From a virus (lineage: Duplodnaviria > Caudoviricetes): a DNA stretch of 64,000 nucleotides. The notes under the pieces are model-generated. The model saw only the letters and a program-made list of their open reading frames with translations, was not told the origin of the DNA and made no database searches. Shown here piece by piece: positions 21,999-61,561 of this stretch (position 1 is its first letter; every line of letters starts with the position of its first letter). The stretch spans positions 1 through 64,000 of IMG/VR virus record IMGVR_UViG_3300021387_000994; one strand, written 5' to 3'. Position numbers and translations under genes: made by a program.

Positions 21999-24041
21999 AT
22001 GAAAGAAAAAAGAGTATTGGTGGTAGAACGCTCGGGTTCTGATATCAGTTATTCTAACGAGACTGTTACTAACAATCTAGGAAAGCAAGAAGAGTCAATA
22101 GTTCTTACCGGTATATTTACAACTTTTAATGAGAAAAATCGTAATGGTAGAATATATGAAAGTGCAGACTTTCTCCCACATCTTGAAGCTTTGAAAGAAT
22201 CTGTTAAGAACCATACTTTACTAGGTGAGTTAGACCACCCACATGGTTTTGAGATTTCACTGACAAATGCAAGTCATGTGATTGAAAGTCTTGAGTTTGA
22301 CCCACAAAGAAATGCTGTTGTTGGTAAGATTCGTCTTCTCAACACTGCAAAGGGTAAGGATGCACAAGCATTAGTAAGAGATGGTATTCCTCTCCATATT
22401 AGTTCTCGTGCTGCCGGTACCGTAGATGAAAGTGGTCACGTAAAACTTCAACAATTGTTCACTTATGATTTGGTTGCAGACCCTGGTTTTGCAAATGCCG
22501 TCTTATCAAGAGTGAATGAAGGGGTGGATTCAAATCCTATTTCAGATGAAACGAGAAGAATTTTGACTGAAATGAAAGAAAATTATGAAAAAATTAATGA
22601 AGGTCTTAATCTAGTTTCGAGTTCTGAAAGTTGTGAGATTTACGAAACTAACACAGAACTTGTTCCAGAACCAGGTAAAGAAGGTAAAAAGACAGATGAT
22701 TTTGGTTGTGAACAACAAAATAAAAACACTAATAAGGCATCTAATGGTACAATAGACGATACAAATAACAAAAATAATATGGACGGAAAATATATTTCAT
22801 TTGAAGATTTTCAGAAATATACTGAGAATCTATCTGAAATCATCGCCGATTTGCAGTCCGCTATTTCAAATTATAGAAATGAGTTAGAATCAGTAAAAAA
22901 TGAAAAAGGTGGCACAAAACCAACCGAAACATTCCAAGATGGAAAAACTGATAATAGTGCAATTTCGAATTTGGTAACAAATAGTGTTGAAAAAAAGATG
23001 AAAGAGGTTGAGGAAAGATATGAGAATTTGAAAAAATATACTATGTATCTAGCCGAACAACTCGACAATTCTATCTCACATCAAGACTACATTGTTGAAA
23101 ACTGCAACAAGATGATTGAACATCAAGATTATATTGTTGAAAACTGCAACAAGATGATTGAACATCAAGATTATATTGTTGAAAACTGCAACAAGATGAT
23201 TGAACATCAAGATTATATTGTTGAGAATTTGAATGACACAATTGGTTATCAAAACTATATTGCAGAGATGTTGGATAAGTCTATTGACTATTCTAATATG
23301 CTTGCAGAAGAGCAGAATAAAAATATCGCTCACTCAGACTATCTCGTAGAGAAGATGAACCAAATGATTGACCATCAAGACTACATTGCAGAAAGTTGCA
23401 ATGAAATGATTGATGAAAACAACAAGTTGAATGAAACTGTTAAAAAATTGAAAGATTTCGGTAATTATTTGGCAGAAGGTATGAATAATATTGTCGCTCA
23501 CAATGATTATATCGTAGAGAGTTTGAACAAGAAAGAAGAAAATTCTTTGAATGAGGAACAGAACAAACAACAAGTTGTTGATAAGAAAGTTGATGAGAAA
23601 AAAGAAGAGAAATTTGATTCAAAGAAATATCAGAATGACCTCAATGAAAAACTTGGAAATCTCATATCAACAGTAAAGACTCAGTATGAAGAGACAAAGA
23701 AGAAAGAAGCCGAACAAATCACAGAGTCAAGAAAGGCTGTTGAAAATGCAAACGAGTTTATGCTTGTTAATTATATCCCAGAAAGGCTTAAAGAAAGATG
23801 GGCAAATCTTTCAGATGAAAGAAAACAAGAAATTTTGGCAGAGTCAAAGATGCTTGTTATCAACAATGCAAATGCAGCAACTTATTTCTGGAACACTCGT
23901 GATATGAGAGAAAAACAAGTTGAGATGAAGAAAGTTGAAGAACAGGTTACTGCAAACCAACAGAACAATCCTATAAACGAAGGTCTAACCGAAAGACAAA
24001 AAATGATGTCTGATATGATTAAGTATCGTATGAGAAGATAA
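21999..24041 (+). CDS. gp21: prohead protease (T4 gp21-like) fused to a long coiled-coil scaffold-like domain
   Basis: KNRNGRIY, LGELDHP, SHVI, ISSRAAG, TYDLVADPGF in the first ~175 aa; remainder is 14-aa helical repeats. Confidence 0.9.
   Translation: MKEKRVLVVERSGSDISYSNETVTNNLGKQEESIVLTGIFTTFNEKNRNGRIYESADFLPHLEALKESVKNHTLLGELDHPHGFEISLTNASHVIESLEFDPQRNAVVGKIRLLNTAKGKDAQALVRDGIPLHISSRAAGTVDESGHVKLQQLFTYDLVADPGFANAVLSRVNEGVDSNPISDETRRILTEMKENYEKINEGLNLVSSSESCEIYETNTELVPEPGKEGKKTDDFGCEQQNKNTNKASNGTIDDTNNKNNMDGKYISFEDFQKYTENLSEIIADLQSAISNYRNELESVKNEKGGTKPTETFQDGKTDNSAISNLVTNSVEKKMKEVEERYENLKKYTMYLAEQLDNSISHQDYIVENCNKMIEHQDYIVENCNKMIEHQDYIVENCNKMIEHQDYIVENLNDTIGYQNYIAEMLDKSIDYSNMLAEEQNKNIAHSDYLVEKMNQMIDHQDYIAESCNEMIDENNKLNETVKKLKDFGNYLAEGMNNIVAHNDYIVESLNKKEENSLNEEQNKQQVVDKKVDEKKEEKFDSKKYQNDLNEKLGNLISTVKTQYEETKKKEAEQITESRKAVENANEFMLVNYIPERLKERWANLSDERKQEILAESKMLVINNANAATYFWNTRDMREKQVEMKKVEEQVTANQQNNPINEGLTERQKMMSDMIKYRMRR
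23079..23226 (+). repeat. 42-nt coding tandem repeat (HQDYIVENCNKMIE)
   Basis: Units start at 23079, 23121, 23163, 23205 and are near-identical. Confidence 0.9.
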
Positions 24042-28349: not shown

Positions 28350-30254
28350 TTAATTATATATTTTACCCCTAATTTCTTTCGGAGCTCCTTTAAGTGATGT
28401 TAATTCATTTCCTCTACAATAAAAATCTCCACCAACTTTTTCAGGAGCACCTTTAAGTGATGTTAATTTATTACACCTACAATTAAAATTTCCAACAACT
28501 TCTATTGGAGCGCCTTCAAGTGATGTTAAATTACTATTCATACACTCAAAATCTCCACCAACTTCTCTTGGAGCACCTTCAAGTGATGTCAATTCATTAC
28601 CAACACAATCAAAATTTCTACCTACTTTTTCTGGAGCACCTTTAAGTGATGTCAATTTATTACGACTACAAATAAAATCTCTACCTACTTTTTCTGGAGC
28701 ACCTTCAAGTGACGTTAATTCATTAAATTTACAAATAAAATCTATACGGACTTTTTCCGGAGCTCCTTTAAGTGATGTTAATTTATTATGGTAGCAATTA
28801 AAATTTCCACTTACTTTTTCTGGAGCACCTTCAAGTGACGTTAATTCATTCCGTTCACACTCAAAATTTCCACCGACTTTTTCCGGAGCACCTTTAAGTG
28901 ATGTCAATTTATTATTATTACACTTAAAACTTTTTTTAACTTTTTCTGGAGCACCTTCAAGTGATGTCAATTTATTACCACTACAATCAAAACTTCCACC
29001 AACTTCTCTTGGAGCACCTTTAAGTGATGTCAATTCATTACCACTACAATCAAAACTTCCACCAACTTCTCTTGGAATACCTTCAAGTGACGTTAATTTA
29101 TTAAAGGAACAATCAAAACTTCCACCAACTTCTATTGGAATATCTTCAAGTGACGTTAATTTATTAAAACTACATATAAAGTCACCACTAACTCTATTAA
29201 AATATATTGGAAGTGACGATAGGTTATTCCCATTAAGTTTTACATCACCATCATAGTCAATAACGGGTTTATCATTTTTTTCTTCAACGAATTTTATTTT
29301 TTTACCATCAAATCCAAAATCACACCAATCCAAAATCAACTTTTTATTATATATAAAAGATTGTTGTTTACCATTTTGAACAAAATAGAAATTTTTAGTT
29401 ATTTTATCTACTTTATCAAATAATGAATTTATATCTACACCTTTTTTAAGTTTTTCTTGAATATTATACTTATTAAATTTTTCACCTTTTTCCGAAGGTT
29501 TAAAGACTTCAAAAAAGTTCATGTTTATAACTTCACTGACTTGTCTAGGAGAACAAAAGTTTTCATTATTTTCTCCATCAAAATCGTGGTTATATCTAGT
29601 TGTGATATATAAAGGCATTCCGTTATAATCTACACATACTGAAATCATTGATAAACCATAGTCGTTCAAAGGGGCGTCTTTATCATCTTTTTTTACATTT
29701 TTGAATCCATTTCTCAAACAAAAATAGAATTGATTCATTCCATCACATGAGTATGAATCGAAATTTTTATTACTTTTTGTAACACACCAAGAAGTATATG
29801 ATTTGTATTTTGAAGCACTTCTATAAGAATTAATTTTAATTATTTCATAATCACTACCTCCAGTGAATTTCATTCTTTTTACATAATTAATTTCCTCTTC
29901 AGTTTCTTTTTTCTGTATTGGAAGGAATCTTTGAAAGATTTCATCCTTACTTAATCCATTGAGATTATTGTCATATTCGGACAAATGTGGTTCAACAGAA
30001 ATGATTTTTAACATACTATTCATTGTAGATATATCATTTGCATTCTGCAACTCTCCATCAACATACATTCTGCACACACCGTACAAAAATTTATATGCCG
30101 GTCTTTCTGTGTGTTCAAGTTCAGAGAAATCATGCTTTACTGCATTTATGATTTCAGATGGATTATCATATCCTTTTGACCTTAACATTCTTTTTGTCTT
30201 GTCTTCTTTTGATTCCAATATAAGAAAACTTCCTAAATCTAATATATTTTTCAT
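28350..30254 (-). CDS. leucine-rich-repeat-like protein (22-aa LTSLEGAPEKVGGNFxC repeats)
   Basis: About 13 tandem 66-nt coding repeats in the C-terminal half; N-terminal domain with a WCVT motif. Confidence 0.8.
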   Translation of the reverse strand: MKNILDLGSFLILESKEDKTKRMLRSKGYDNPSEIINAVKHDFSELEHTERPAYKFLYGVCRMYVDGELQNANDISTMNSMLKIISVEPHLSEYDNNLNGLSKDEIFQRFLPIQKKETEEEINYVKRMKFTGGSDYEIIKINSYRSASKYKSYTSWCVTKSNKNFDSYSCDGMNQFYFCLRNGFKNVKKDDKDAPLNDYGLSMISVCVDYNGMPLYITTRYNHDFDGENNENFCSPRQVSEVINMNFFEVFKPSEKGEKFNKYNIQEKLKKGVDINSLFDKVDKITKNFYFVQNGKQQSFIYNKKLILDWCDFGFDGKKIKFVEEKNDKPVIDYDGDVKLNGNNLSSLPIYFNRVSGDFICSFNKLTSLEDIPIEVGGSFDCSFNKLTSLEGIPREVGGSFDCSGNELTSLKGAPREVGGSFDCSGNKLTSLEGAPEKVKKSFKCNNNKLTSLKGAPEKVGGNFECERNELTSLEGAPEKVSGNFNCYHNKLTSLKGAPEKVRIDFICKFNELTSLEGAPEKVGRDFICSRNKLTSLKGAPEKVGRNFDCVGNELTSLEGAPREVGGDFECMNSNLTSLEGAPIEVVGNFNCRCNKLTSLKGAPEKVGGDFYCRGNELTSLKGAPKEIRGKIYN

Positions 30255-52771: not shown

Positions 52772-53131
52772 TTATTGTATTTGTTCCTTCCAAACCTTCC
52801 CACACTTCCGGCAAGTGTAAACTCGATAAGTGTTGTGGACTTTATGTTTTCCGAACTCTGTCTTGTTTCCGTTCTCATCAAGATATTCTTCATCATACGA
52901 AATTGATGAGTTCTTGTAACAGTTGTGGTATATCTTATCAGGTAGTGAAAACTCACCATTTATTATCATAAGTATCACAAGTACCCACGACATAAAGACC
53001 GACAAATATATACCGAGTATCAAAAAGAACTTCGGATGGTCATAGTGTTTATACTCACGAATTTTTTCGTTACCGAGCAAAGCGATAATAATACCGATTG
53101 TCCAAAAGATTATAAGTGCAAGTATGTTCAT
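52772..53131 (-). CDS. small membrane protein with C-terminal CxxC
   Basis: Two hydrophobic segments; YTCRKCGK. Confidence 0.6.
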   Translation of the reverse strand: MNILALIIFWTIGIIIALLGNEKIREYKHYDHPKFFLILGIYLSVFMSWVLVILMIINGEFSLPDKIYHNCYKNSSISYDEEYLDENGNKTEFGKHKVHNTYRVYTCRKCGKVWKEQIQ

Positions 53132-53451
53132 ACGAGTTCATCAATTCTTTTCTGTTCTTTAAAATAATTTTCAACAAGTGAAGCAACAAACGACTCACTG
53201 TCCTTGAATGGTACACCAGAGAATAACATTGATGAATTGATTTTGGTGTTCATCGGAATGATTTTACCATCTCTTTTGTCTTTCAGTTCGGATGTAAAAA
53301 CAAGTGTTCCGTCTTTTTCTTCAGATACCTTGAACGAAAAATCTTCAGTCATACATCTATAATGGAGTTCAGATTCATCTTCTTTCTCCAACACAAACTG
53401 AAGATGTTTGTAATCCTTGATTTGTTCTTTGAGTTTTAACAGATTTTTCAT
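53128..53451 (-). CDS. hypothetical protein
   Basis: Likely start 53451 (MKNLLK), downstream of a TTTGTTATATTTA motif at ~53475-53487. Confidence 0.6.
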   Translation of the reverse strand: MKNLLKLKEQIKDYKHLQFVLEKEDESELHYRCMTEDFSFKVSEEKDGTLVFTSELKDKRDGKIIPMNTKINSSMLFSGVPFKDSESFVASLVENYFKEQKRIDELV

Positions 53452-53480
53452 ATTTACAAATTTTTTATATACTGTAAATA

Positions 53481-54485
53481 TAACAAATTCCATTTCAGAA
53501 TATAGAGTTAAACATTTTATCTCCGAGTAGAATAACCGATTCCATTTAAGAATATAGTATTAAAATACCAAAAGGTCTAATTTTATAAAAATCCAAATTA
53601 CGATTCCATTTCGGAATATAGGGTTAAATGTTGCAGACGGCGAAGTGATTGTAGCTTTCGTATTATGATTCCATTTCAGAACATAGGGTTAAACACCGCT
53701 TCGGTGGTTTTGGTTGAACTGTGTCCATTATGATTCCATAACAGAACATAGGATTAAATAATCATTCGTCCCACGTCGGACCATTGACGTAATTACGATT
53801 CCATTTCAGGTAATAAGGTTAAATAATACTTTCCGTTTTGTGGTATAATTATGGAACATTATGATTCCATTTCAGAATATAAGTTTAAACACTTGAAGAA
53901 TACGTCAAGAAAGCCGAGAAGAAATTATGATTCCATTTCAGAACATAGGGTTAAACACTATACTGTCTAAACATTGGCAATACCGTATAATTGTGATTCC
54001 ATTTCAGAACATAGGGTTAAACACTTGACTTACCATTCTTTCTTGCAACAAGTATATTGTGATTCCATTTCAGAACATAGGGTTAAACACTTCGTACCAG
54101 ATGGTTCAGATATATGTGTGCATTGTGATTCCATTTCAGAACATAGGGTTAAACACTACGATTACCTACATAGCTAACAAGACCTCCATTGTGATTCCAT
54201 TTCAGAACATAGGGTTAAACACTATACAATGTACTGAGAATACAACAGATATAATTGTGATTCCATTTCAGAACATAGGGTTAAACACTCAGAATCTGAA
54301 TCATTACGTGCAGATTTAATTGTGATTCCATTTCAGAACATAGGGTTAAACACTTGATTTGGTAACACAAAGACTTTTCCTGTATTGTGATTCCATTTCA
54401 GAACATAGGGTTAAACACTTCACAAATTTAAATCTCGTTGTCACACTTCATTGTGATTCCATTTCAGAACATAGGGTTAAACACT
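53481..54485. CRISPR. CRISPR array, 16 repeats (36 nt) / 15 spacers (mostly 29-30 nt)
   Basis: Repeat ATTGTGATTCCATTTCAGAACATAGGGTTAAACACT is perfect at 53990, 54056, 54122, 54188, 54254, 54319, 54384, 54450; degenerate copies at 53924, 53858, 53792, 53727, 53662, 53597, 53533, 53481; spacers unique. Confidence 0.97.
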
Positions 54486-54524
54486 ACGATTTATATATAA
54501 GTAAATATATCAATACTTTAACAA

Positions 54525-55694
54525 CTATTCATCAAAAATTTTTTCATATGTGTCTTTGTAGTCAGTATCATAAAGAATTGTATCAATTTCAACACTACAT
54601 ATACCACCCTCAAGACACCTACACACACCAGAATTTTCTTTTATTGCTTTAATCACTTTATCGTCGTCTGTTTCTATTATAATTGTTGCATCAAATACAA
54701 GTTTGTGTGTGTCAACACCTCTCTTATTTAATAGATAACATTTTCCACCAAGACCCTTATCACTATTCTGCATTTGTGGGTATATTTTTTTGTTTTTTCT
54801 AATAAAAAACAAACCATCACCATTACTTCGATTTGGAAAATCAACATTGAATATGGCACACATCCAAGGTCTGTAAAAGTTTCCAGAAACAGTTGTCAAC
54901 TCATTTTTCCAACCATCCTCGATACTTTTTACAAAATCTATTGTTCTCTCAATCAAGTCGTTATCATTTTTTAATTTCTCATATATTTCCTTACACATTT
55001 CTGAAAAAGTAAGATATTTTCTAACATCATCATACCCCAAAATTTCATTTATATATGAAAAAAGTCTTCTATATGTTTCAGTTTCTTTGTTCTCAAATGT
55101 ACGTAACAATTGGTCATAACTATAATAACCAAGCATCGTCTTCATCTTATTACCATTTTCATCTGGTTCTTCAAGTTCAAAAAAACTTTGTTTATATGAA
55201 ACATTACTGTTTATAGAAAGTTTTTCACTTTTAATAAGTTCCATATCGAGAAAAATCTCATTACCACTTTTAAATTCTGGTTTGTATATATGATAATACT
55301 CACCATCTGAACCAATGACTGTTTTGATGTAATTTGATGAATCAATAGGAGTGTTAAATTTTATATATGCTTTCTTTGCAAGATTTACACATATTTCTGG
55401 ATATGTTAAAATATCTTCATACAAATATCTATTACGTCTCTTTGGTTTTGTTGGTGTTGGGACACCGTTCATAAGACTTGTCATCAAGTTACAAACATCA
55501 GTCCAAGCAAGCGGTTTTCGAAAATTATGACCTCTTTTAATCCAACTCAACGTCACTTTTTCGTTTGGAAATTCTTTCTGCAAATCAGCAAGTATTTCTT
55601 TAATTACTGGATTTCTTCCATCGGTTTTTGGGTTCAACGACTCTTTCAATAGACCAGCGTTTTCAATATTCAAATATAGATAATACATAATCAC
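54525..55694 (-). CDS. cas5: Cas5fv-like (type I-F2-like) Cascade subunit
   Basis: Position after cas7; N-terminal beta strand and C-terminal ATIIIETDDDKVIKAIKENSGV...LEGG resemble the recalled Cas5fv C-terminus; large central helical insert; GTG start 55694 or ATG 55688. Confidence 0.6.
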   Translation of the reverse strand: MIMYYLYLNIENAGLLKESLNPKTDGRNPVIKEILADLQKEFPNEKVTLSWIKRGHNFRKPLAWTDVCNLMTSLMNGVPTPTKPKRRNRYLYEDILTYPEICVNLAKKAYIKFNTPIDSSNYIKTVIGSDGEYYHIYKPEFKSGNEIFLDMELIKSEKLSINSNVSYKQSFFELEEPDENGNKMKTMLGYYSYDQLLRTFENKETETYRRLFSYINEILGYDDVRKYLTFSEMCKEIYEKLKNDNDLIERTIDFVKSIEDGWKNELTTVSGNFYRPWMCAIFNVDFPNRSNGDGLFFIRKNKKIYPQMQNSDKGLGGKCYLLNKRGVDTHKLVFDATIIIETDDDKVIKAIKENSGVCRCLEGGICSVEIDTILYDTDYKDTYEKIFDE

Positions 55695-55703
55695 ACAAAT
55701 TTA

Positions 55704-55745: not shown

Positions 55746-56837
55746 TTATTCATTATCATTTTTATTTTGAGAGTTTTTCCACTTCTCTCTCTCTTGTTGT
55801 TTCTTGTCCTTTTTTTCTTTTGACTTTTTATCCTTCTCTTCAATATGTTTCTTTCTATTTTTCCAACCTTCAAAAGAATCCTCAACATAAAATTGCTCAA
55901 TTTCAAAAGTCAAGTCATTTACATTATCTTTCGTAACAACAATTTCTTTACCTTTCGTACCACCCTCATATATCAATTCGATTTTAAGTTCATATGCTTC
56001 CACCTCTCCACGACGACGGTGAATATTTAATTCAAGAAGTCCATTTAAAGCTTTGTTTATAAGTGTGTTCACATACTCATCATCAAAAAGAAGACCATAT
56101 TCTGCACCATAACCTTCACCAAAAACATCTTGTGCATCTTTTGGTTTGAAAAACCCTACTTTATATGGTACTCTGCCATAACGCTTGAGAAATGCCTTTT
56201 CGAGAGAACTCCCACAAGGGATTCCACCATCTTCAATGTTTTTTTCATCAGAACCTTCAAAATACTCTTTATCTGCACCAAGTCTACCGGAATATAAATC
56301 AAGTGACAAAAATTGGGCTTCCTTAACACTAAAAAAACCATTCACATAATATTCCGTTTCTCCAAGTTGTTCTTCTGTAAATAAAGAATTACAGTCACGA
56401 TAACCAGATTTTGTGTCTTGGTCTACAATTATTTCAGATTTTGTTTCGATTGCATCATATGGTGTCAAACAAGATGCTTTTCCAAAACCATTTCCACTAG
56501 GTGCAGAACCATCAGCACACATATACCCCCTCATAAATCCCATAGGACTTGAGATAAAATTACAAGCATTTGTTATAAAACCCCAAGTAGAAGAATCACA
56601 TTTATTCGTACCTTTAAACAATGCATAACGAATACAACCAGATGAAATTTTGGCATGCTCATCATATGATACATTACCATACTCATCCATAACTTTCTGT
56701 TTTATTTTTTTAAGGCGGTTTATTGGTTTTGTACCTTTTAATTCACTGTCGTATACATTTTCGACACCATTATAATTCACACCACCTTGACCTTTTAATT
56801 TAAGATGAAACTTAAATCCTTTTAACTTATTATTCAT
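55746..56837 (-). CDS. cas7: Cas7fv-like (type I-F2) backbone subunit
   Basis: KGQGGVNYNG, ISSGCIRYALF, SPMGFMRGYM, GYRDCNSLF..LGETEY, QFLSLD, GLLFDDEYV, LNIHRRRG are co-linear with motifs I recall from Shewanella Cas7fv. Confidence 0.8.
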   Translation of the reverse strand: MNNKLKGFKFHLKLKGQGGVNYNGVENVYDSELKGTKPINRLKKIKQKVMDEYGNVSYDEHAKISSGCIRYALFKGTNKCDSSTWGFITNACNFISSPMGFMRGYMCADGSAPSGNGFGKASCLTPYDAIETKSEIIVDQDTKSGYRDCNSLFTEEQLGETEYYVNGFFSVKEAQFLSLDLYSGRLGADKEYFEGSDEKNIEDGGIPCGSSLEKAFLKRYGRVPYKVGFFKPKDAQDVFGEGYGAEYGLLFDDEYVNTLINKALNGLLELNIHRRRGEVEAYELKIELIYEGGTKGKEIVVTKDNVNDLTFEIEQFYVEDSFEGWKNRKKHIEEKDKKSKEKKDKKQQEREKWKNSQNKNDNE

Positions 56838-56856: not shown

Positions 56857-57552
56857 TTATTCATAATCACATTTAAGACCAGCGAATCCAAAACCATATC
56901 CAGTGGATTGACCAAACCCCATTGATGTCAATTTTTCCCTAACATCACGCTTACCCTTTAGAATGATTTGAATACAAGATGTCTTTATACAATTTTCTTG
57001 TTTTGTTCCAGCCTTAACTTTACACCATTTAACTTTCCAATTTTCTTTATGAAATGGTTCTATTTTTATAGTCGCTGCATCACTCTCTGAGACACCACTT
57101 TTAATAAGTTTCTTAACCGTGTGTGAGCGAAGTATATCAATAAAATGCTCTTCATCTTCAAAAGTGATGTTTTTATCATCAATTTTTAGGCGAAGACAAT
57201 TTATTCTTACAATATCAAATCTTGGCATTGAAGTTTGCTTATACGTATCAAAATCCTCAAATATCATAGTTTGAACCATACCATTATCCCAAATATCCAT
57301 AATATTATTAGATAACGTTTTGATAAAATCATTATCATCAGAACTAACTATTATATGACCACCATTGGGATATTGAATCAACCCATTCTTATCTAAAACA
57401 CCACCCCTCATTTGTGAAATAGAATAATTTGAAGTACCATTGTGCCACTTATTATTATTTCCAAGGCATGTGTGAATATATCCAACAACATAATCTATCG
57501 TTGGTTTTGTAAATGGTTCACTGTTTGGTTTAAATTTTATTTTAAGTCTCAT
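56857..57552 (-). CDS. cas6: CRISPR-associated endoribonuclease Cas6
   Basis: MRLKIKF N-terminus, YSISQM, C-terminal G-rich loop GFGQSTGYGFG. Confidence 0.9.
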   Translation of the reverse strand: MRLKIKFKPNSEPFTKPTIDYVVGYIHTCLGNNNKWHNGTSNYSISQMRGGVLDKNGLIQYPNGGHIIVSSDDNDFIKTLSNNIMDIWDNGMVQTMIFEDFDTYKQTSMPRFDIVRINCLRLKIDDKNITFEDEEHFIDILRSHTVKKLIKSGVSESDAATIKIEPFHKENWKVKWCKVKAGTKQENCIKTSCIQIILKGKRDVREKLTSMGFGQSTGYGFGFAGLKCDYE

Positions 57553-57572: not shown

Positions 57573-57603
57573 CAAAGATACTATTTTTTTTTCAAATATC
57601 AAA
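57573..57603 (-). promoter_or_regulatory. Bacteroidota housekeeping-type promoter for cas6-cas7-cas5
   Basis: TTTG-N19-TATCTTTG on the minus strand. Confidence 0.75.
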
Positions 57604-57610
57604 ATAAAAA

Positions 57611-60025
57611 TTAAGAAACTGGATAAAGACCAAGTTCATCATTATAATTGTGATTAAACAAAAGAGTTGGTCTGTCTGAACGATATGAAAGTTCTGATGA
57701 ACTTTTAATATCACACACACCAGTTATACCATAAACTCTTTTTAAAGTTCTTTTATCTGGAAAATCAAATGGAGTTTTGTCTAACATAAACATATATCTC
57801 TTTCTTGCTTCATCTGATGGGTCTTTTGATATATCATTTTCTCTCTTCAAAATGAAATCAGAACAAGCAATTGGTTCAAGAAAACCATCTAGTGTTTTAA
57901 CTGTTATGAAAACATTACCATTAGTACCACGATAAGTACAACCCCTTGAAACCATCTTGACACCATCATATTTTTTATTATTTGAACTACCAACAAGAGT
58001 TATATTCATAAGACCATCCATACCGTTGTTATAAAGGTTTGTATAATATCTAACGAATATACTCTCATTATCTTTATAAAAATTATGATATAACTCATAA
58101 AATTTATTTTTAGTGATTGTTTTTCCTTCAAGTGATTTCAAAATACCAATCCAATTTTTGTAAAGTTTAACAATATCAGAATCATTTGTTTTTATTGAAG
58201 GATATGTCCAAGGTTCGTATCTATACATAATATATCTCAAACCTTCTTCACTTAAATCATAAAAAACATTATAATCCACCTCACCATATTCATTAAATCT
58301 ACTGAGACGACCACAAGCGTGTTGAATTGTATCATCCGGTAAAATACAAAAGTCATTCATAGATTTTGCCGAAATATCCCAACCAGTACCTATCAAACTT
58401 GTAGACACAACGGCTTTCTTATCTTTTGTTGATTCTTTACCATACATATCAAATACTTCACTACTAATATCTTTACGACGATTTTCACGAAATATAGAAT
58501 GTACTAAAATTTTTGGATTTTCTGCTTTCAAATATATATCTCGTGCATCATCGACAGTTTTACATATAGTAAAACTATTTTGTTTAACAAGTTCAATAGG
58601 AATATTACCATCAGAACAATCGTATGTTTTAATGTTTATTTTAACATCACCTGAGTGTATTGGTATATCATTGAAAAAATTTATTTTATCGGAATCACCA
58701 AACCAAAGATTCTTAAAATCTGGTGCAGTGGCACTCATAAGAAGACATTTTCCCTTTGTGTAATGCATAATATTTAACATAGAATTTATAAATGCTGGAA
58801 ACATAGGGTGTCCACATCTAAAATCTTGATATTCATCAAATATAACATTTCCAAAATAATTATAAACAAGAAATTTCGAAAAGTTATTCTTTGAATTTCT
58901 ATTAAGATAATTATCTATATTTGTAATAATAATATCACAATTTTCAAGTCTGCAATCTTTATGATTTGAGTCCTTTATCTCCCCTGTTGTGAAAGAACAA
59001 ACTTTTATAATATCATTGAGACCCATTTTCTCAAGTTCACGAATAACACTTTTATATGTAGATTCTGTTAAAGAATTTGTCGGAAGAACCCATAAACCCT
59101 TTTCTTTATTTTCAATTAGCCATAAAATTGCCATAAGTGTTTTTCCAAAACCAGCCGATGCTGTTAAAACATTTACACGAACCTTATTATCAACAATCTT
59201 TTTAATTATTTCTAATTGGGTATCAAGTCTTTTTGTGTCATATCTTGACAAATCAGTATCTCTTTTGCAAAAATTAGATTTTTTTGAATCTAAAAATGAA
59301 GAGTAAACACAACTTGATGCTGTACGGTCAGACCAATTTAAGATTGCATGATTTATTGATTGATATGAACTTAATTCAACCTCTTCTCTTGTTTCCTTTA
59401 TTTTTATATCTGGTCTAAATTTAACACAACTAAAAAGACACTCATCACAAACCTTTCTATCATAAAAAAATTTTTTATCAAGAATCATTCTATAATTATC
59501 ATTATGAGATAAATCTGTACCATATTTTAAATCAACATATTCAATCATATACATATAAAAATTCTTCATATCTTCAAATGTGTCTGGTTCATCCTCAAAA
59601 ATACTCTTCATAATATCCTTTGAGGATTTATTTTTATCAGAACGAACAATATGATGAAACAATATGGGTGAAGTAATGTCACTCATAGAGTATACACGAT
59701 TCAAACAAGATACGGTAAATGCCCAAGAAATTGTGTTATGATATTCCTTTGTGTTATCACAACCATCATATTTTATAGACTCAAGACTATCTTCGTCAAG
59801 TTCACTTTTTTCTTCAATAAATTTTTGAAAACTTTTTGTAAACTTTCCGATGTCGTGCAATATAATTGTTAAGGCGATATGTTCTTTAAACTCCTTTGTA
59901 CACTTTGATTCTTCCATCAAATCTATAAAAGACATACCCAATTCAATAACATCTTTCGTATGTTCCACAATGGTTTTTCCACCATACTTTTTACTTTTTG
60001 CAAATTTATTCTCAAACATATACAT
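57611..60025 (-). CDS. cas3: Cas3 HD nuclease-helicase (no Cas2 fusion)
   Basis: EHT..V, LHDIGK, YHN, FHH, SDRTASS HD motifs; ASAGFGKT, DEYQ, MSAT, GWDIS, QHACGRLSR helicase motifs. Confidence 0.92.
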   Translation of the reverse strand: MYMFENKFAKSKKYGGKTIVEHTKDVIELGMSFIDLMEESKCTKEFKEHIALTIILHDIGKFTKSFQKFIEEKSELDEDSLESIKYDGCDNTKEYHNTISWAFTVSCLNRVYSMSDITSPILFHHIVRSDKNKSSKDIMKSIFEDEPDTFEDMKNFYMYMIEYVDLKYGTDLSHNDNYRMILDKKFFYDRKVCDECLFSCVKFRPDIKIKETREEVELSSYQSINHAILNWSDRTASSCVYSSFLDSKKSNFCKRDTDLSRYDTKRLDTQLEIIKKIVDNKVRVNVLTASAGFGKTLMAILWLIENKEKGLWVLPTNSLTESTYKSVIRELEKMGLNDIIKVCSFTTGEIKDSNHKDCRLENCDIIITNIDNYLNRNSKNNFSKFLVYNYFGNVIFDEYQDFRCGHPMFPAFINSMLNIMHYTKGKCLLMSATAPDFKNLWFGDSDKINFFNDIPIHSGDVKINIKTYDCSDGNIPIELVKQNSFTICKTVDDARDIYLKAENPKILVHSIFRENRRKDISSEVFDMYGKESTKDKKAVVSTSLIGTGWDISAKSMNDFCILPDDTIQHACGRLSRFNEYGEVDYNVFYDLSEEGLRYIMYRYEPWTYPSIKTNDSDIVKLYKNWIGILKSLEGKTITKNKFYELYHNFYKDNESIFVRYYTNLYNNGMDGLMNITLVGSSNNKKYDGVKMVSRGCTYRGTNGNVFITVKTLDGFLEPIACSDFILKRENDISKDPSDEARKRYMFMLDKTPFDFPDKRTLKRVYGITGVCDIKSSSELSYRSDRPTLLFNHNYNDELGLYPVS

Positions 60026-60036
60026 ATATTTTTTTG

Positions 60037-60067
60037 CAAAGATACTATTTTTTCACCAATAAACAAA
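60037..60067 (-). promoter_or_regulatory. Bacteroidota housekeeping-type promoter for cas3
   Basis: TTTG-N19-TATCTTTGCA on the minus strand, just downstream of the terminator at 60070-60101. Confidence 0.78.
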
Positions 60068-60793: not shown

Positions 60794-61561
60794 ATGTTAG
60801 AAATTAATAAAATATATAACCAAGATTGTCTTGAAGGTATGAAAGAGATAGATGACAAGTCAATCGACTGCATCATCTGTGATTTACCTTATGAGGTTCT
60901 CAATAAATCGAATGAAAACGCCAAATGGGACGTTGTGATACCTTTTGACAAACTATGGGAACAATACAACAGAATAATCAAGGACAACGGTGCTATATTA
61001 CTTTTTGGACAAGGTATGTTCACTGCACAGTTGATGATGAGTAATTCTTCAATGTGGAGGTATAATCTTATATGGAAAAAAGGAAACCGTTCCACAGGTT
61101 TCTTGAATGCAAAAAGGATGCCTCTTCGTAACCACGAAGACATTGTTGTATTCTACAAGAAACTTCCAACATATAATCCACAGAAGGTCATTGGTGCAAA
61201 GAACCACTCTCGTGGTAATGTAAAAAAACAGAAAAACCAATGCTATGGTAAATTTGATGCTTCAGTCACCCAAGATGATTTTTCTGGAATGAAATATCCG
61301 ACGAGTATAATAGATGTTGAGAAAGAACATTGTAAGACATTCCACCCGACACAGAAACCGGTTGAACTTATATCATACTTGATAAAGACTTATACAAATG
61401 AAGGAGACTTAGTTCTAGACAATTGCATTGGAAGTGGAACGACTGCAATCTCTTGTATAAAAGAAAATAGAAATTTTATCGGATTTGAAACAAACGAAGA
61501 ATATTTCGAGAAAGCAAGTAAAAGAATAAATGATGAAAAATCAATAATAAAATTGTTTTAA
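60794..61561 (+). CDS. N4-C/N6-A DNA methyltransferase (beta class), paralog of 49206..49952
   Basis: ICDLPY, HPTQKP, VLDNCIGSGTT. Confidence 0.9.
   Translation: MLEINKIYNQDCLEGMKEIDDKSIDCIICDLPYEVLNKSNENAKWDVVIPFDKLWEQYNRIIKDNGAILLFGQGMFTAQLMMSNSSMWRYNLIWKKGNRSTGFLNAKRMPLRNHEDIVVFYKKLPTYNPQKVIGAKNHSRGNVKKQKNQCYGKFDASVTQDDFSGMKYPTSIIDVEKEHCKTFHPTQKPVELISYLIKTYTNEGDLVLDNCIGSGTTAISCIKENRNFIGFETNEEYFEKASKRINDEKSIIKLF

Follow-up and report, generated by a model that had tools for sequence, protein, structure and literature searches.

A phage-borne type I CRISPR array built like a type II-C array: possible spacer acquisition through host Cas1–Cas2

The window analysed here, a 64,000-nt stretch, forms part of a 133,579-bp record (IMGVR_UViG_3300021387_000994; CheckV completeness 39%) of a large gut or rumen phage. 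A class 1 CRISPR locus lies along its minus strand, with the following features.

53481–54485, minus strand: CRISPR array, leader end at 54485; 16 repeats of 36 nt, 15 spacers
54486–54524, minus strand: putative minimal leader, 39 AT-rich nt that separate the first repeat from the cas5-like stop codon
54525–55694, minus strand: Cas5-like protein, 389 aa, possibly Cas5fv-like (fold match; conserved slot after cas7 in all relatives)
55671–55699, minus strand: third promoter motif, at the cas5 start
55746–56837, minus strand: Cas7fv-like backbone protein, 363 aa (NF040577, PADLOC Cas7fv, PF28157, 5O6U)
56857–57552, minus strand: Cas6 endoribonuclease, 231 aa (PF01881, TIGR01877, PADLOC Cas6b at 74.5 bits)
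57573–57603, minus strand: Bacteroidota-type promoter motif TTTG-N19-TAnnTTTG, just upstream of cas6
57611–60025, minus strand: stand-alone Cas3 (HD nuclease and helicase), 804 aa (PF18019, PF00270, PF22590, TIGR01587, TIGR01596, PADLOC Cas3b and Cas3fv)
60037–60067, minus strand: Bacteroidota-type promoter motif, just upstream of cas3 and near-identical to the copy at 57573–57603

Profile searches identify the genes for Cas3, Cas6 and the Cas7fv-like protein, and together with the Cas5-like protein the components of a type I effector (Cas3, Cas7, Cas5 and Cas6) are all represented, the Cas5 part by a weak fold match. The Cas3 protein begins with its HD domain and carries no Cas2 fusion. The Cas7fv-like protein scores 80 bits (E 1.5e-22) against NCBIfam NF040577, which is under the 200-bit cut-off of that model; PADLOC also calls it Cas7fv, the PF28157 assignment comes from precomputed annotation, and a profile built from eight homologues matches Cas7fv in PDB 5O6U (E 5e-24). 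By these profile comparisons, it is a distant relative of the Cas7fv family. The 389-aa protein has no sequence match in Pfam, NCBIfam, PADLOC or the PDB. The top structural match of its AF2 model (pLDDT 63.5) by VIA-align is 5o6u_F, which is Cas5fv (Z 6.1, rmsd 3.7 over 128 residues), and a Foldseek search of the PDB with the model gave no significant match. The modelled fold suggests a Cas5-like protein that is possibly Cas5fv-like. A Cas6f identity was considered for the Cas6 protein and rejected, as it matches PF01881, TIGR01877 and PADLOC Cas6b instead and is classical Cas6b-like. No Cas8 or other large subunit was matched, and there is no room for one between the four effector genes. The phage carries a type I system composed of Cas3, a Cas6b-like Cas6, a Cas7fv-like protein and a Cas5-like protein, without Cas8, Cas1 or Cas2.

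The type I-F2 system of Shewanella putrefaciens CN-32 (PMC4937334; PDB 5O6U, 9G44) resembles this system in its Cas7fv-type backbone, its lack of Cas8 and its Cas5-like partner. By contrast, I-F2 has Cas1, a Cas2-Cas3 fusion and Cas6f, whereas the phage system has a stand-alone Cas3, a Cas6b-like Cas6 and no adaptation genes, and I-F2 arrays have 28-nt repeats and 32-nt spacers rather than the 36-nt repeats and 29–30-nt spacers of the window. Homologues of the phage Cas6, 28–34% identical, occur in 27 of 401 Bacteroidota genomes, and an I-B-type array is present in five of the seven neighbourhoods that were fetched. The Bacteroidales I-B arrays beside the closest of these homologues have 30-nt repeats and 35–38-nt spacers. 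A type I-B identity for the phage system was rejected, given the absence of Cas8b and the contrast between this I-B layout and the 36/30 layout of the phage array. The first-pass annotation had held that its interpretation would fail if the nearest repeats came from type I or III loci with their own Cas1 and 30-nt spacers; the arrays next to the Cas6 homologues are I-B arrays with these longer spacers.

The element at 53481–54485 is a real CRISPR array. Repeat searches and TRF detect a 65–66-nt period across 53479–54491, and placement of the repeats by hand gives the 16 repeats and 15 spacers, of which eight are 30 nt, five are 29 nt and two are 22-nt remnants between decayed repeats. The eight cas-proximal repeats (53990–54485) are identical, the ninth has one change and the remainder degrade toward 53481, where the final three are barely recognisable. 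Constant repeats, unique spacers of near-constant length and cas genes only 39 nt away are thus all present. Between the end of the first repeat (54485) and that of the 389-aa ORF with its stop codon (54525) lies a gap of 39 nt with ~15% G+C. Period, repeat and spacer lengths, gradient of decay and AT-rich gap all agree with what the first-pass annotation had described. Fold prediction gave no stable hairpin for the repeat on either strand, and no inverted copy of the repeat (an anti-repeat or tracrRNA-like element) is present across the 133-kb record.

Six related phage loci, five of them on contigs of 58–383 kb, share the 36/30 layout, the polarity and the repeat end, which makes this layout a trait of the phage-borne system. 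Cas7 identity within the family falls to about 35%; one related phage, G406 (302,581 bp, 82% complete), yields a Cas7 match with E 3e-110. In all seven family arrays the repeats are 36 nt, 30-nt spacers predominate over 29-nt ones, the repeats at the cas5 side are perfect and the spacers are unrelated. The repeat ends in AATCACAAT in the window, in AATCACAAC in four of the six relatives and in AATCAAAA(C/T) in L015 and L168. Four relatives have the array on the cas strand directly 3′ of cas5, and in three of those cas3 is next. Across 101 repeats, the best-kept part is a GAATC block that spans the cut site expected at −8. A scan of JGI metagenomes with the family repeat core returned six loci that are family arrays or fragments (L147, L148, L155, L157, L168 and L170) and 24 others that are single chance matches, with no array beside cas1. 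The exact repeat core had no match in IMG/VR, a tblastn-based locus search of IMG/VR with Cas7 found no relatives, and the Cas7 profile matched none of 401 Bacteroidota genomes or five II-C-bearing genomes.

To compare these arrays with those of type II-C systems, we scanned 185,579 species genomes for two copies of AATCACAAY separated by 59–79 nt. At least some 45 arrays were found; all of the matches listed have 30-nt spacers and repeats of 35–36 or 46–47 nt, and within the fetched stretch type II Cas1 is present in 27 of them and Cas9 in 22. Among the matches listed, every bacterial array that shares the 9-nt end AATCACAAC and has cas genes in view carries Cas9 and/or type II Cas1, none has a Cas7fv-like gene nearby, and all read ...AATCACAAC in the cas9–cas1 direction, just as the phage array does from its own cas genes. 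The end GTTGTGATT, which the first-pass annotation had named, proves to be the signature end of II-C repeats, and the reference arrays listed that share it have 30-nt spacers and, wherever cas genes are in view, type II cas genes. The phage array has this end as well (AATCACAAC at the leader-distal side is GTTGTGATT in the crRNA sense), together with the 30-nt spacers. II-C and phage arrays are also alike in having a minority of 29-nt spacers, a cas-proximal leader and far-end decay, the last being visible in L067, a Prevotella MAG and the single bacterial array examined for decay. Outside the 9-mer by which the comparison arrays were selected, and by shuffle tests that ignore kinship among repeats, the phage repeats match the 36-nt II-C repeats among the matches listed at 11.2 of 27 positions (shuffles 7.07 ± 0.58) and the 33 listed II-C repeats of 46–47 nt at 13.97 of 27 positions when one 11-nt deletion is allowed (shuffles 9.59 ± 0.46). 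Overall identity to the 36-nt II-C repeats is 55%. Judged from these alignments, the likeness consists of both repeat ends and a weaker internal signal.

There are also several differences. II-C loci, which occur in Bacteroidota and other phyla, contain cas9–cas1–cas2 and a tracrRNA, whereas Cas9, type II Cas1/Cas2 and an anti-repeat are missing from the 133 kb of phage sequence searched. An internal TAnnTTTG promoter box on the crRNA-sense strand is found in 19 of the 33 II-C repeats considered among the matches listed, in contrast to none of seven phage repeats on either strand. Finally, Bacteroidales II-C repeats are mostly 46–47 nt, so the ruler of a II-C integrase would need to tolerate a 36-nt repeat.

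In Flavobacterium columnare, a II-C Cas1 acting in trans supplies spacers to VI-B arrays that lack Cas1 and have a 36-nt repeat and 30-nt spacers (Hoikkala et al. 2021, PMC8092290); the first-pass annotation had cited such acquisition for Bacteroidota. By the description in PMC8092290, VI-B (Cas13b) arrays resemble the window array in their 36/30 layout, in the lack of cas1/cas2 in the locus and in a leader-distal GTTGT/ACAAC end shared with II-C. The effectors differ, as VI-B uses Cas13b encoded on the host chromosome, whereas the window encodes a multi-subunit, DNA-targeting class 1 effector with Cas3 on a phage. The VI-B and II-C repeats of F. columnare share only the leader-distal GTTGT motif, and II-C repeats in other species are ~11 bp longer (PMC8092290); a size mismatch between a 36-nt repeat and longer II-C repeats thus exists in this proven pairing too. 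The phage array has the attributes of a VI-B-like client, namely no adaptation genes of its own and a repeat length, repeat ends and spacer length compatible with a II-C module.

We lean, at somewhat better than even probability, toward the reading that host II-C Cas1–Cas2 fills the phage array in trans, with the phage transcribing the minus strand and Cas6 processing the transcript. As a DNA substrate, the array is built like a II-C array, with a short cas-side leader, 30-nt spacers and a 36-nt repeat whose leader-proximal end is NNTGT and whose leader-distal end is AATCACAA(C/T). First, upon infection of a II-C-bearing Bacteroidota host, the host Cas1–Cas2 would integrate 30-nt prespacers at the cas5-proximal repeat. 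Next, the array would be co-transcribed on the minus strand with cas6–cas7–cas5, as gene order and promoters suggest. By analogy, the phage Cas6 could then cut 8 nt before the 3′ end of the repeat, creating a AUCACAAU handle. Finally, a Cas7fv/Cas5 complex and Cas3 would attack matching DNA, most likely that of competing phages. Type II Cas1, the enzyme that such a host would supply, occurs in 102 of the 301 Bacteroidales genomes sampled. The idea of the first-pass annotation that the array serves as a substrate for host II-C Cas1–Cas2 is borne out in its sequence-level predictions and limited by repeat size, the prevailing Bacteroidales II-C length not being 36 nt; acquisition in trans itself is what we infer.

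The array is most likely transcribed on the minus strand. This direction is suggested by the minus-strand orientation of the cas genes and of the motifs before cas3, cas6 and cas5, by the position of the array after cas5 on the cas strand in four relatives, by the conservation of GAATC across the expected −8 cut site and by the lack of a TAnnTTTG box in the phage repeats. The promoter motif occurs seven times in the whole window against 4.4 expected, a count not above chance. VI-B arrays are transcribed from the leader and II-C arrays toward it, and spacers integrated by II-C have their PAM end facing the leader (PMC8092290). A transcript that starts at the leader side would consequently carry this end 5′ of the guide, the side on which a type I system reads its PAM.

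Alternatively, the array could be inherited and either static or growing by recombination only, in which case an ancestor joined type I effectors to a II-C or VI-B array and the present layout is a frozen relic. We consider this unlikely. Three further assemblies of the window phage, from different samples, are pertinent here, as the two that include the array carry spacers identical to those of the window and no turnover is seen; the long, heavily decayed arrays of L015 and L168 would also fit a relic, as would the lack of a protospacer in any set searched. Searched against the remainder of the phage record and every fetched locus, the 15 window spacers gave matches of at most 16 nt. The window array gave nothing convincing against 50,697 INPHARED phage records, and in 401 genomes from the genus to which a Prevotella MAG belongs it gave only chance-level partial matches across repeat–spacer borders. 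Three window spacers, searched with every sixth base free, had no match in IMG/VR; 90-odd spacers of the seven family arrays had none in the window phage record, the whole 302-kb G406 sequence or the other family loci; and 816 bacterial II-C spacers matched the family phages over at most 23 nt, with none near full length. As no protospacer was found, no PAM was derived. What speaks against a relic is that most of the diverged lineages keep a run of identical repeats at the cas5 end, unrelated spacers and a decayed old end, as expected if spacers went on being added at one end once these lineages had split. The runs of identical repeats comprise eight copies in the window and at least ten in G406, but two to four in L012, L015 and L174.

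It is quite unlikely that the phage has adaptation genes in an unsampled part of its genome, fills the array itself and owes the 36/30 layout to that module. Profile searches for Cas1 (PF01867) and Cas2 (PF09827) found neither in the window, in agreement with the first-pass annotation, nor in the whole 133,579-bp record, where the same annotation had held that finding them would count against its proposal; Cas4 and Cas9 are absent from the record as well. The low completeness of this record leaves some room for such genes, as does the fact that a 250-kb contig of the same phage and the 383-kb contig of L012 were searched in part. Nevertheless, Cas1, Cas2, Cas4 and Cas9 are all absent from the 82%-complete G406 sequence, and Cas1/Cas2/Cas4 are absent from the 10 kb that flank the cas genes of L012 and L174 on each side and from the shorter flanks of L015. 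According to published surveys, CRISPR systems of huge phages are nearly all without Cas1, Cas2 and Cas4 (PMC7162821, PMC13037316).

A coincidental likeness to II-C strikes us as distinctly improbable; the repeat would then be an elongated version of a common class 1 Cas6 repeat, with a 3′ handle that ends like II-C repeats by chance, and an unrecognised phage or host integrase would set the 30-nt spacers. Some of the resemblance does have another possible source. The nearest cellular Cas6 homologues adjoin I-B arrays that also have a 66-nt period (30 + 36) and whose repeats, in the cas direction, finish with GGAAT and then six nucleotides of which the last three read AA[C/T]. The 3′ end of the phage repeat matches this handle region at an average of 7.1 positions among its last 12 nt, so part of the II-C resemblance may not be mimicry, and the repeat matches no CRISPR-DR family in Rfam at a relaxed threshold. 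The last 9 nt of the phage repeats, however, match II-C repeats at 8.4 of nine positions and I-B repeats at 5.5. The leader-proximal NNTGT end, the repeat length, the 30/29-nt spacers and the similarity inside the repeat favour II-C as well, as does the uniformly type II context of the bacterial arrays with the same end among the matches listed.

Service by another host module, V-A Cas1–Cas2–Cas4 or I-B, is highly improbable. Bacteroidales V-A arrays do share the 36-nt repeat length, and their transcription starts at the leader, with the PAM 5′ of the guide. The V-A spacers, however, are spread over 26–30 nt (periods of 62–66 nt), the V-A repeats match the phage repeats at chance level (27%, and 30% overall) and type V Cas1 is rare (8 of 301 genomes); the I-B spacers are 35–38 nt.

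If host II-C Cas1–Cas2 does fill the phage array, there are several implications. First, the phage memory would be updated only while infecting II-C-positive hosts. Second, if host Cas9 also helps to choose prespacers, incoming spacers would already be filtered for the Cas9 PAM, and the PAM reader of the phage, the Cas5-like protein, would have either to recognise this PAM as its reverse complement on the leader side or to work without any PAM; protospacer flanks of the phage are predicted to mirror the host Cas9 PAM. Third, cross-talk by trans-acquisition would extend across CRISPR classes and across the virus–host boundary, explaining how adaptation-less CRISPR systems of huge phages stay current. 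More broadly, a whole clade of huge Bacteroidota phages might depend on its hosts in this way, with type I arrays that evolved as integration targets for II-C Cas1–Cas2, a wider claim that we regard as possible, with the balance tilted against it.

Trans-acquisition has been shown experimentally both for VI-B with II-C (PMC8092290) and for plasmid type IV-A3 systems, which gain spacers via host I-E Cas1–Cas2 (Benz et al., bioRxiv 10.1101/2023.06.23.546257). Like the window locus, IV-A3 systems and huge-phage loci without Cas1/2/4 (PMC7162821) combine an effector on a mobile element with a host-like array and no adaptation module. Both partners in the IV-A3/I-E pairing are class 1, whereas the pairing proposed for the phage would join a class 1 effector array to a class 2 adaptation module. 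Surveys of huge phages report missing adaptation genes and some host-like repeats, not a class 1/II-C pairing (PMC7162821), and we found no description of a phage type I array served by host II-C adaptation in the literature searched. As host-like phage arrays and Cas1-less phages are already in print, the advance lies in a specific testable case rather than in a new principle. The compact, Cas8-less interference module of four genes with 30-nt guides is possibly worth characterising in its own right.

The leaders invite a last comparison. A leader-end motif, ..TCGT or ..ATGT, recurs in the window, in L012 and in a small number of II-C leaders without being general, and it serves here only as a lead. 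The arrays of four relatives begin just 5–6 nt past the cas5 stop codon. A Prevotella II-C array (L073) has a leader that agrees with the last 30 nt of the window leader at 18 of 30 positions, a value reached by 1.6% of shuffles.

The 65–66-nt period described in the first-pass annotation resolves, when placed by hand, into 16 repeats of 36 nt with spacers of 30 nt (n=8) or 29 nt (n=5), and two 22-nt remnants separate the final, barely recognizable repeats. The polarity and AT-rich gap described there also hold: the eight cas-nearest repeats (53990–54485) are identical, the ninth differs by one change and the remainder degrade in the direction of 53481, and 39 nt of ~15% G+C lie between the first repeat and the end of a 389-aa ORF, stop codon included. 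Four cas-locus genes lie upstream, all on the minus strand, and are listed here after the array:

53481–54485, minus, CRISPR array, 65–66-nt period, 16 repeats of 36 nt, placed by hand
54525–55694, minus, 389-aa protein, candidate Cas5 by predicted fold
55746–56837, minus, Cas7fv-like protein, from profile searches
56857–57552, minus, classical Cas6 (PF01881; PADLOC Cas6b, 74.5 bits)
57611–60025, minus, Cas3 with HD and helicase domains, without the Cas2 part

In the Shewanella I-Fv Cascade (5O6U), the Cas7 family profile matches the Cas7fv chain (E 5e-24). Sequence searches with the 389-aa protein gave no match; its AF2 model, of moderate confidence (pLDDT 63.5), aligns best with Cas5fv (5o6u_F, Z 6.1) and next with other Cas5 and Cmr3 chains, tentatively suggesting that it is Cas5. 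The cas locus holds no candidate ORF for Cas8. Because an N6/N4 DNA methyltransferase gene (60794–61561) lies immediately upstream and a family B DNA polymerase gene is nearby on a longer contig of the same phage (L009:182–3124), the locus sits among replication and modification genes. A 121-aa minus-strand ORF (53128–53493), which starts within the last decayed repeat, weakly matches a PADLOC type II restriction enzyme model (E 4e-4). Tandem repeats occur at 28377–29228 (63-nt unit, ~12.7 copies) and 23078–23262 (42-nt unit, 3.5 copies, 98% identity). The 133-kb record contains neither a second array nor an inverted repeat copy (anti-repeat).

The 36/30 layout is a family trait of this phage-borne system. 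Cas7 homologues, with identities down to ~35%, identified six further phage loci: L012 (383 kb), L015, L168 (58 kb), L157, G406/L173 (302 kb) and L174 (352 kb). All six have 36-nt repeats, spacers mainly of 30 nt and less often of 29 nt, and perfect repeats at the cas5 side with decay at the far end. In the cas direction, repeats of all seven phage arrays begin NNTGT and end AATCACAA(C/T) in five arrays and AATCAAAA(C/T) in L015 and L168. In four relatives the array starts 5–6 nt past the cas5 stop codon (L012:12226–13560, L015:5821–7010, L174:12057–12810, L168:7430–8460), and the leader must therefore lie within the cas5 coding end; the window's 39-nt leader retains an ATTGAT motif, which in relatives is part of the coding region. 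The array precedes cas3 and follows cas5 in L012, L015 and L174, whereas cas3 has moved upstream in the window. Profile searching among 1.8 billion cluster representatives yielded 537 Cas7fv-like proteins; 401 sampled Bacteroidota genomes yielded none.

The same repeat end recurs in bacteria. We scanned 185,579 species, one genome each, for two AATCACAAY copies 59–79 nt apart; at least ~45 of the matches listed are real arrays, all with 30-nt spacers. Repeats are 46–47 nt in at least ~33 listed arrays (nearly all Bacteroidota, several of them Prevotella MAGs) and 35–36 nt in at least ~10 (Proteobacteria, Nitrospirota, Cloacimonadota, Kiritimatiellia, Rikenella and Cytophagales). The fetched 8-kb stretches around listed arrays contain type II Cas1 in at least 27 cases and Cas9 in at least 22, with no Cas7fv-like gene, and in the cas9-cas1-cas2 direction every listed repeat ends ...AATCACAAC; the II-C-like end named in the first-pass annotation is shared with genuine type II loci. 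The single II-C array examined for decay, L067 from a Prevotella MAG, also has decayed repeats at its far end, and II-C and phage arrays have the same DNA-level arrangement.

The AATCACAAY 9-mer defined the II-C set, so independent evidence comes only from the other repeat positions. Outside the 9-mer, phage repeats agree with 36-nt II-C repeats at 11.2/27 positions (shuffles 7.07 ± 0.58) and, with one 11-nt deletion allowed, 46–47-nt repeats at 13.97/27 (shuffles 9.59 ± 0.46), in tests that ignore kinship among sequences and so overstate significance. Over their whole length, phage repeats are 55% identical to the 36-nt II-C class, compared with 65% within the class. The last 30 bases of the window leader match a Prevotella II-C leader (L073) at 18/30, a score reached by 1.6% of shuffles, which is a weaker hint of a II-C link.

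Bacteroidota-type promoter motifs stand immediately before cas3 and cas6, where the two copies are nearly identical, and at the start of cas5; none occurs on the plus strand in the array or downstream. In relatives, the array is embedded on one strand as cas5-array-cas3. Conservation among 101 repeats is highest in the block GAATC (positions 27–31), which spans the canonical cut site, 8 nt short of the 3′ end. The phage repeat forms no stable hairpin, and Cas6b-type substrates usually have none. From these features, the phage array is probably transcribed on the minus strand, which would yield a AUCACAAU 5′ handle. A TAnnTTTG box lies on the crRNA-sense strand in 19 of 33 Bacteroidota 46–47-nt II-C repeats and in none of the seven phage repeats on either strand. 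The box fits putative transcription from within II-C repeats toward the leader, and the ~11 extra nt of the longer II-C repeats may carry this promoter.

There is precedent for acquisition in trans. In Flavobacterium columnare, a Cas1-less VI-B array gains spacers through II-C Cas1 (Hoikkala et al., PMC8092290). The leader-distal GTTGT end is the main likeness of VI-B and II-C repeats, and in other species II-C repeats exceed the 36-bp VI-B repeats by ~11 bp. Transcription runs toward the leader in II-C arrays and in the opposite direction in VI-B arrays, and the PAM end of the spacer is oriented to the leader (PMC8092290). Every sequence-level feature of this VI-B 'client' array recurs in the phage arrays. 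Were they filled in the same way, leader-side transcription would place the PAM-derived end at the guide 5′ end, where type I complexes read the PAM. All testable sequence predictions of the borrowing first proposed for this array hold, and we infer, with slightly more confidence than doubt, that host II-C machinery services it. More broadly, surveys find Cas1, Cas2 and Cas4 missing from most CRISPR systems of huge phages and report host-like repeats in some of these systems (PMC7162821, PMC13037316); on plasmids, IV-A3 systems rely on borrowed I-E adaptation (bioRxiv 10.1101/2023.06.23.546257). The 2022 Cell virus–CRISPR survey aside, we found no literature description of phage-borne type I arrays whose repeats are of II-C type.

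The promoter motifs, together with the likeness of repeat and leader, suggest a host in Bacteroidota; rumen or gut samples are the source of several relatives. None of 816 bacterial II-C spacers matches these phages. We found no protospacers in the phage record, G406, the family loci, INPHARED, IMG/VR (searched with three spacers) or 401 Prevotella-genus genomes, and so derived no PAM. The three oldest readable spacers (11–13; 53633–53791) have 52–55% G+C, compared with 27–43% in the ten newer ones (53828–54449), near the phage's own 30–35%; targets may have changed over time. No spacer turnover was seen, spacers being identical in the two other same-phage assemblies that include the array. 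Spacers of each related locus are unrelated to those of the others. An array inherited and frozen seems unlikely.

Alternatively, adaptation genes could reside in the unsampled part of the phage genome. The window covers the initial 64 kb of a record of 133,579 bp, rated 39% complete by CheckV. Cas1 and Cas2, noted as missing from the window, have no profile match in this entire record, and neither do Cas4 and Cas9; all four are likewise absent from the related phage record G406 (302,581 bp, rated 82% complete; Cas7 match E 3e-110), and we judge this explanation quite improbable.

A coincidental II-C likeness, in a repeat with an ordinary class 1 handle, is very doubtful. Of 401 Bacteroidota genomes, 27 carry the phage Cas6's nearest cellular relatives (28–34% identical), and five of seven fetched neighborhoods have an I-B-type array with 30-nt repeats and 35–38-nt spacers, rather than the 30-nt spacers in type I or III neighbors that the first-pass annotation had weighed against its proposal. 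Because I-B repeats, read in the cas direction, finish with GGAAT and six further nt, the last three being AA(C/T), the phage repeat 3′ end partly resembles an ordinary Cas6 handle region; its last 12 nt match I-B at 7.1/12 and II-C at 9.0/12. The phage array (36 + 30) and Bacteroidota I-B arrays L190–L195 (30 + 36) have a common 66-nt unit with the parts swapped, which may be coincidence.

Service by a different host module is highly improbable: Bacteroidales V-A arrays have 36-nt repeats, as in the phage, but 26–30-nt spacers, and their repeats match phage repeats at the chance level of 27–30%. Of the adaptation modules found in the probable host order, type II alone yields the narrow 30/29-nt range of spacer lengths, and type II Cas1 occurs in 102 of 301 Bacteroidales genomes, compared with 8 of 301 for type V Cas1.
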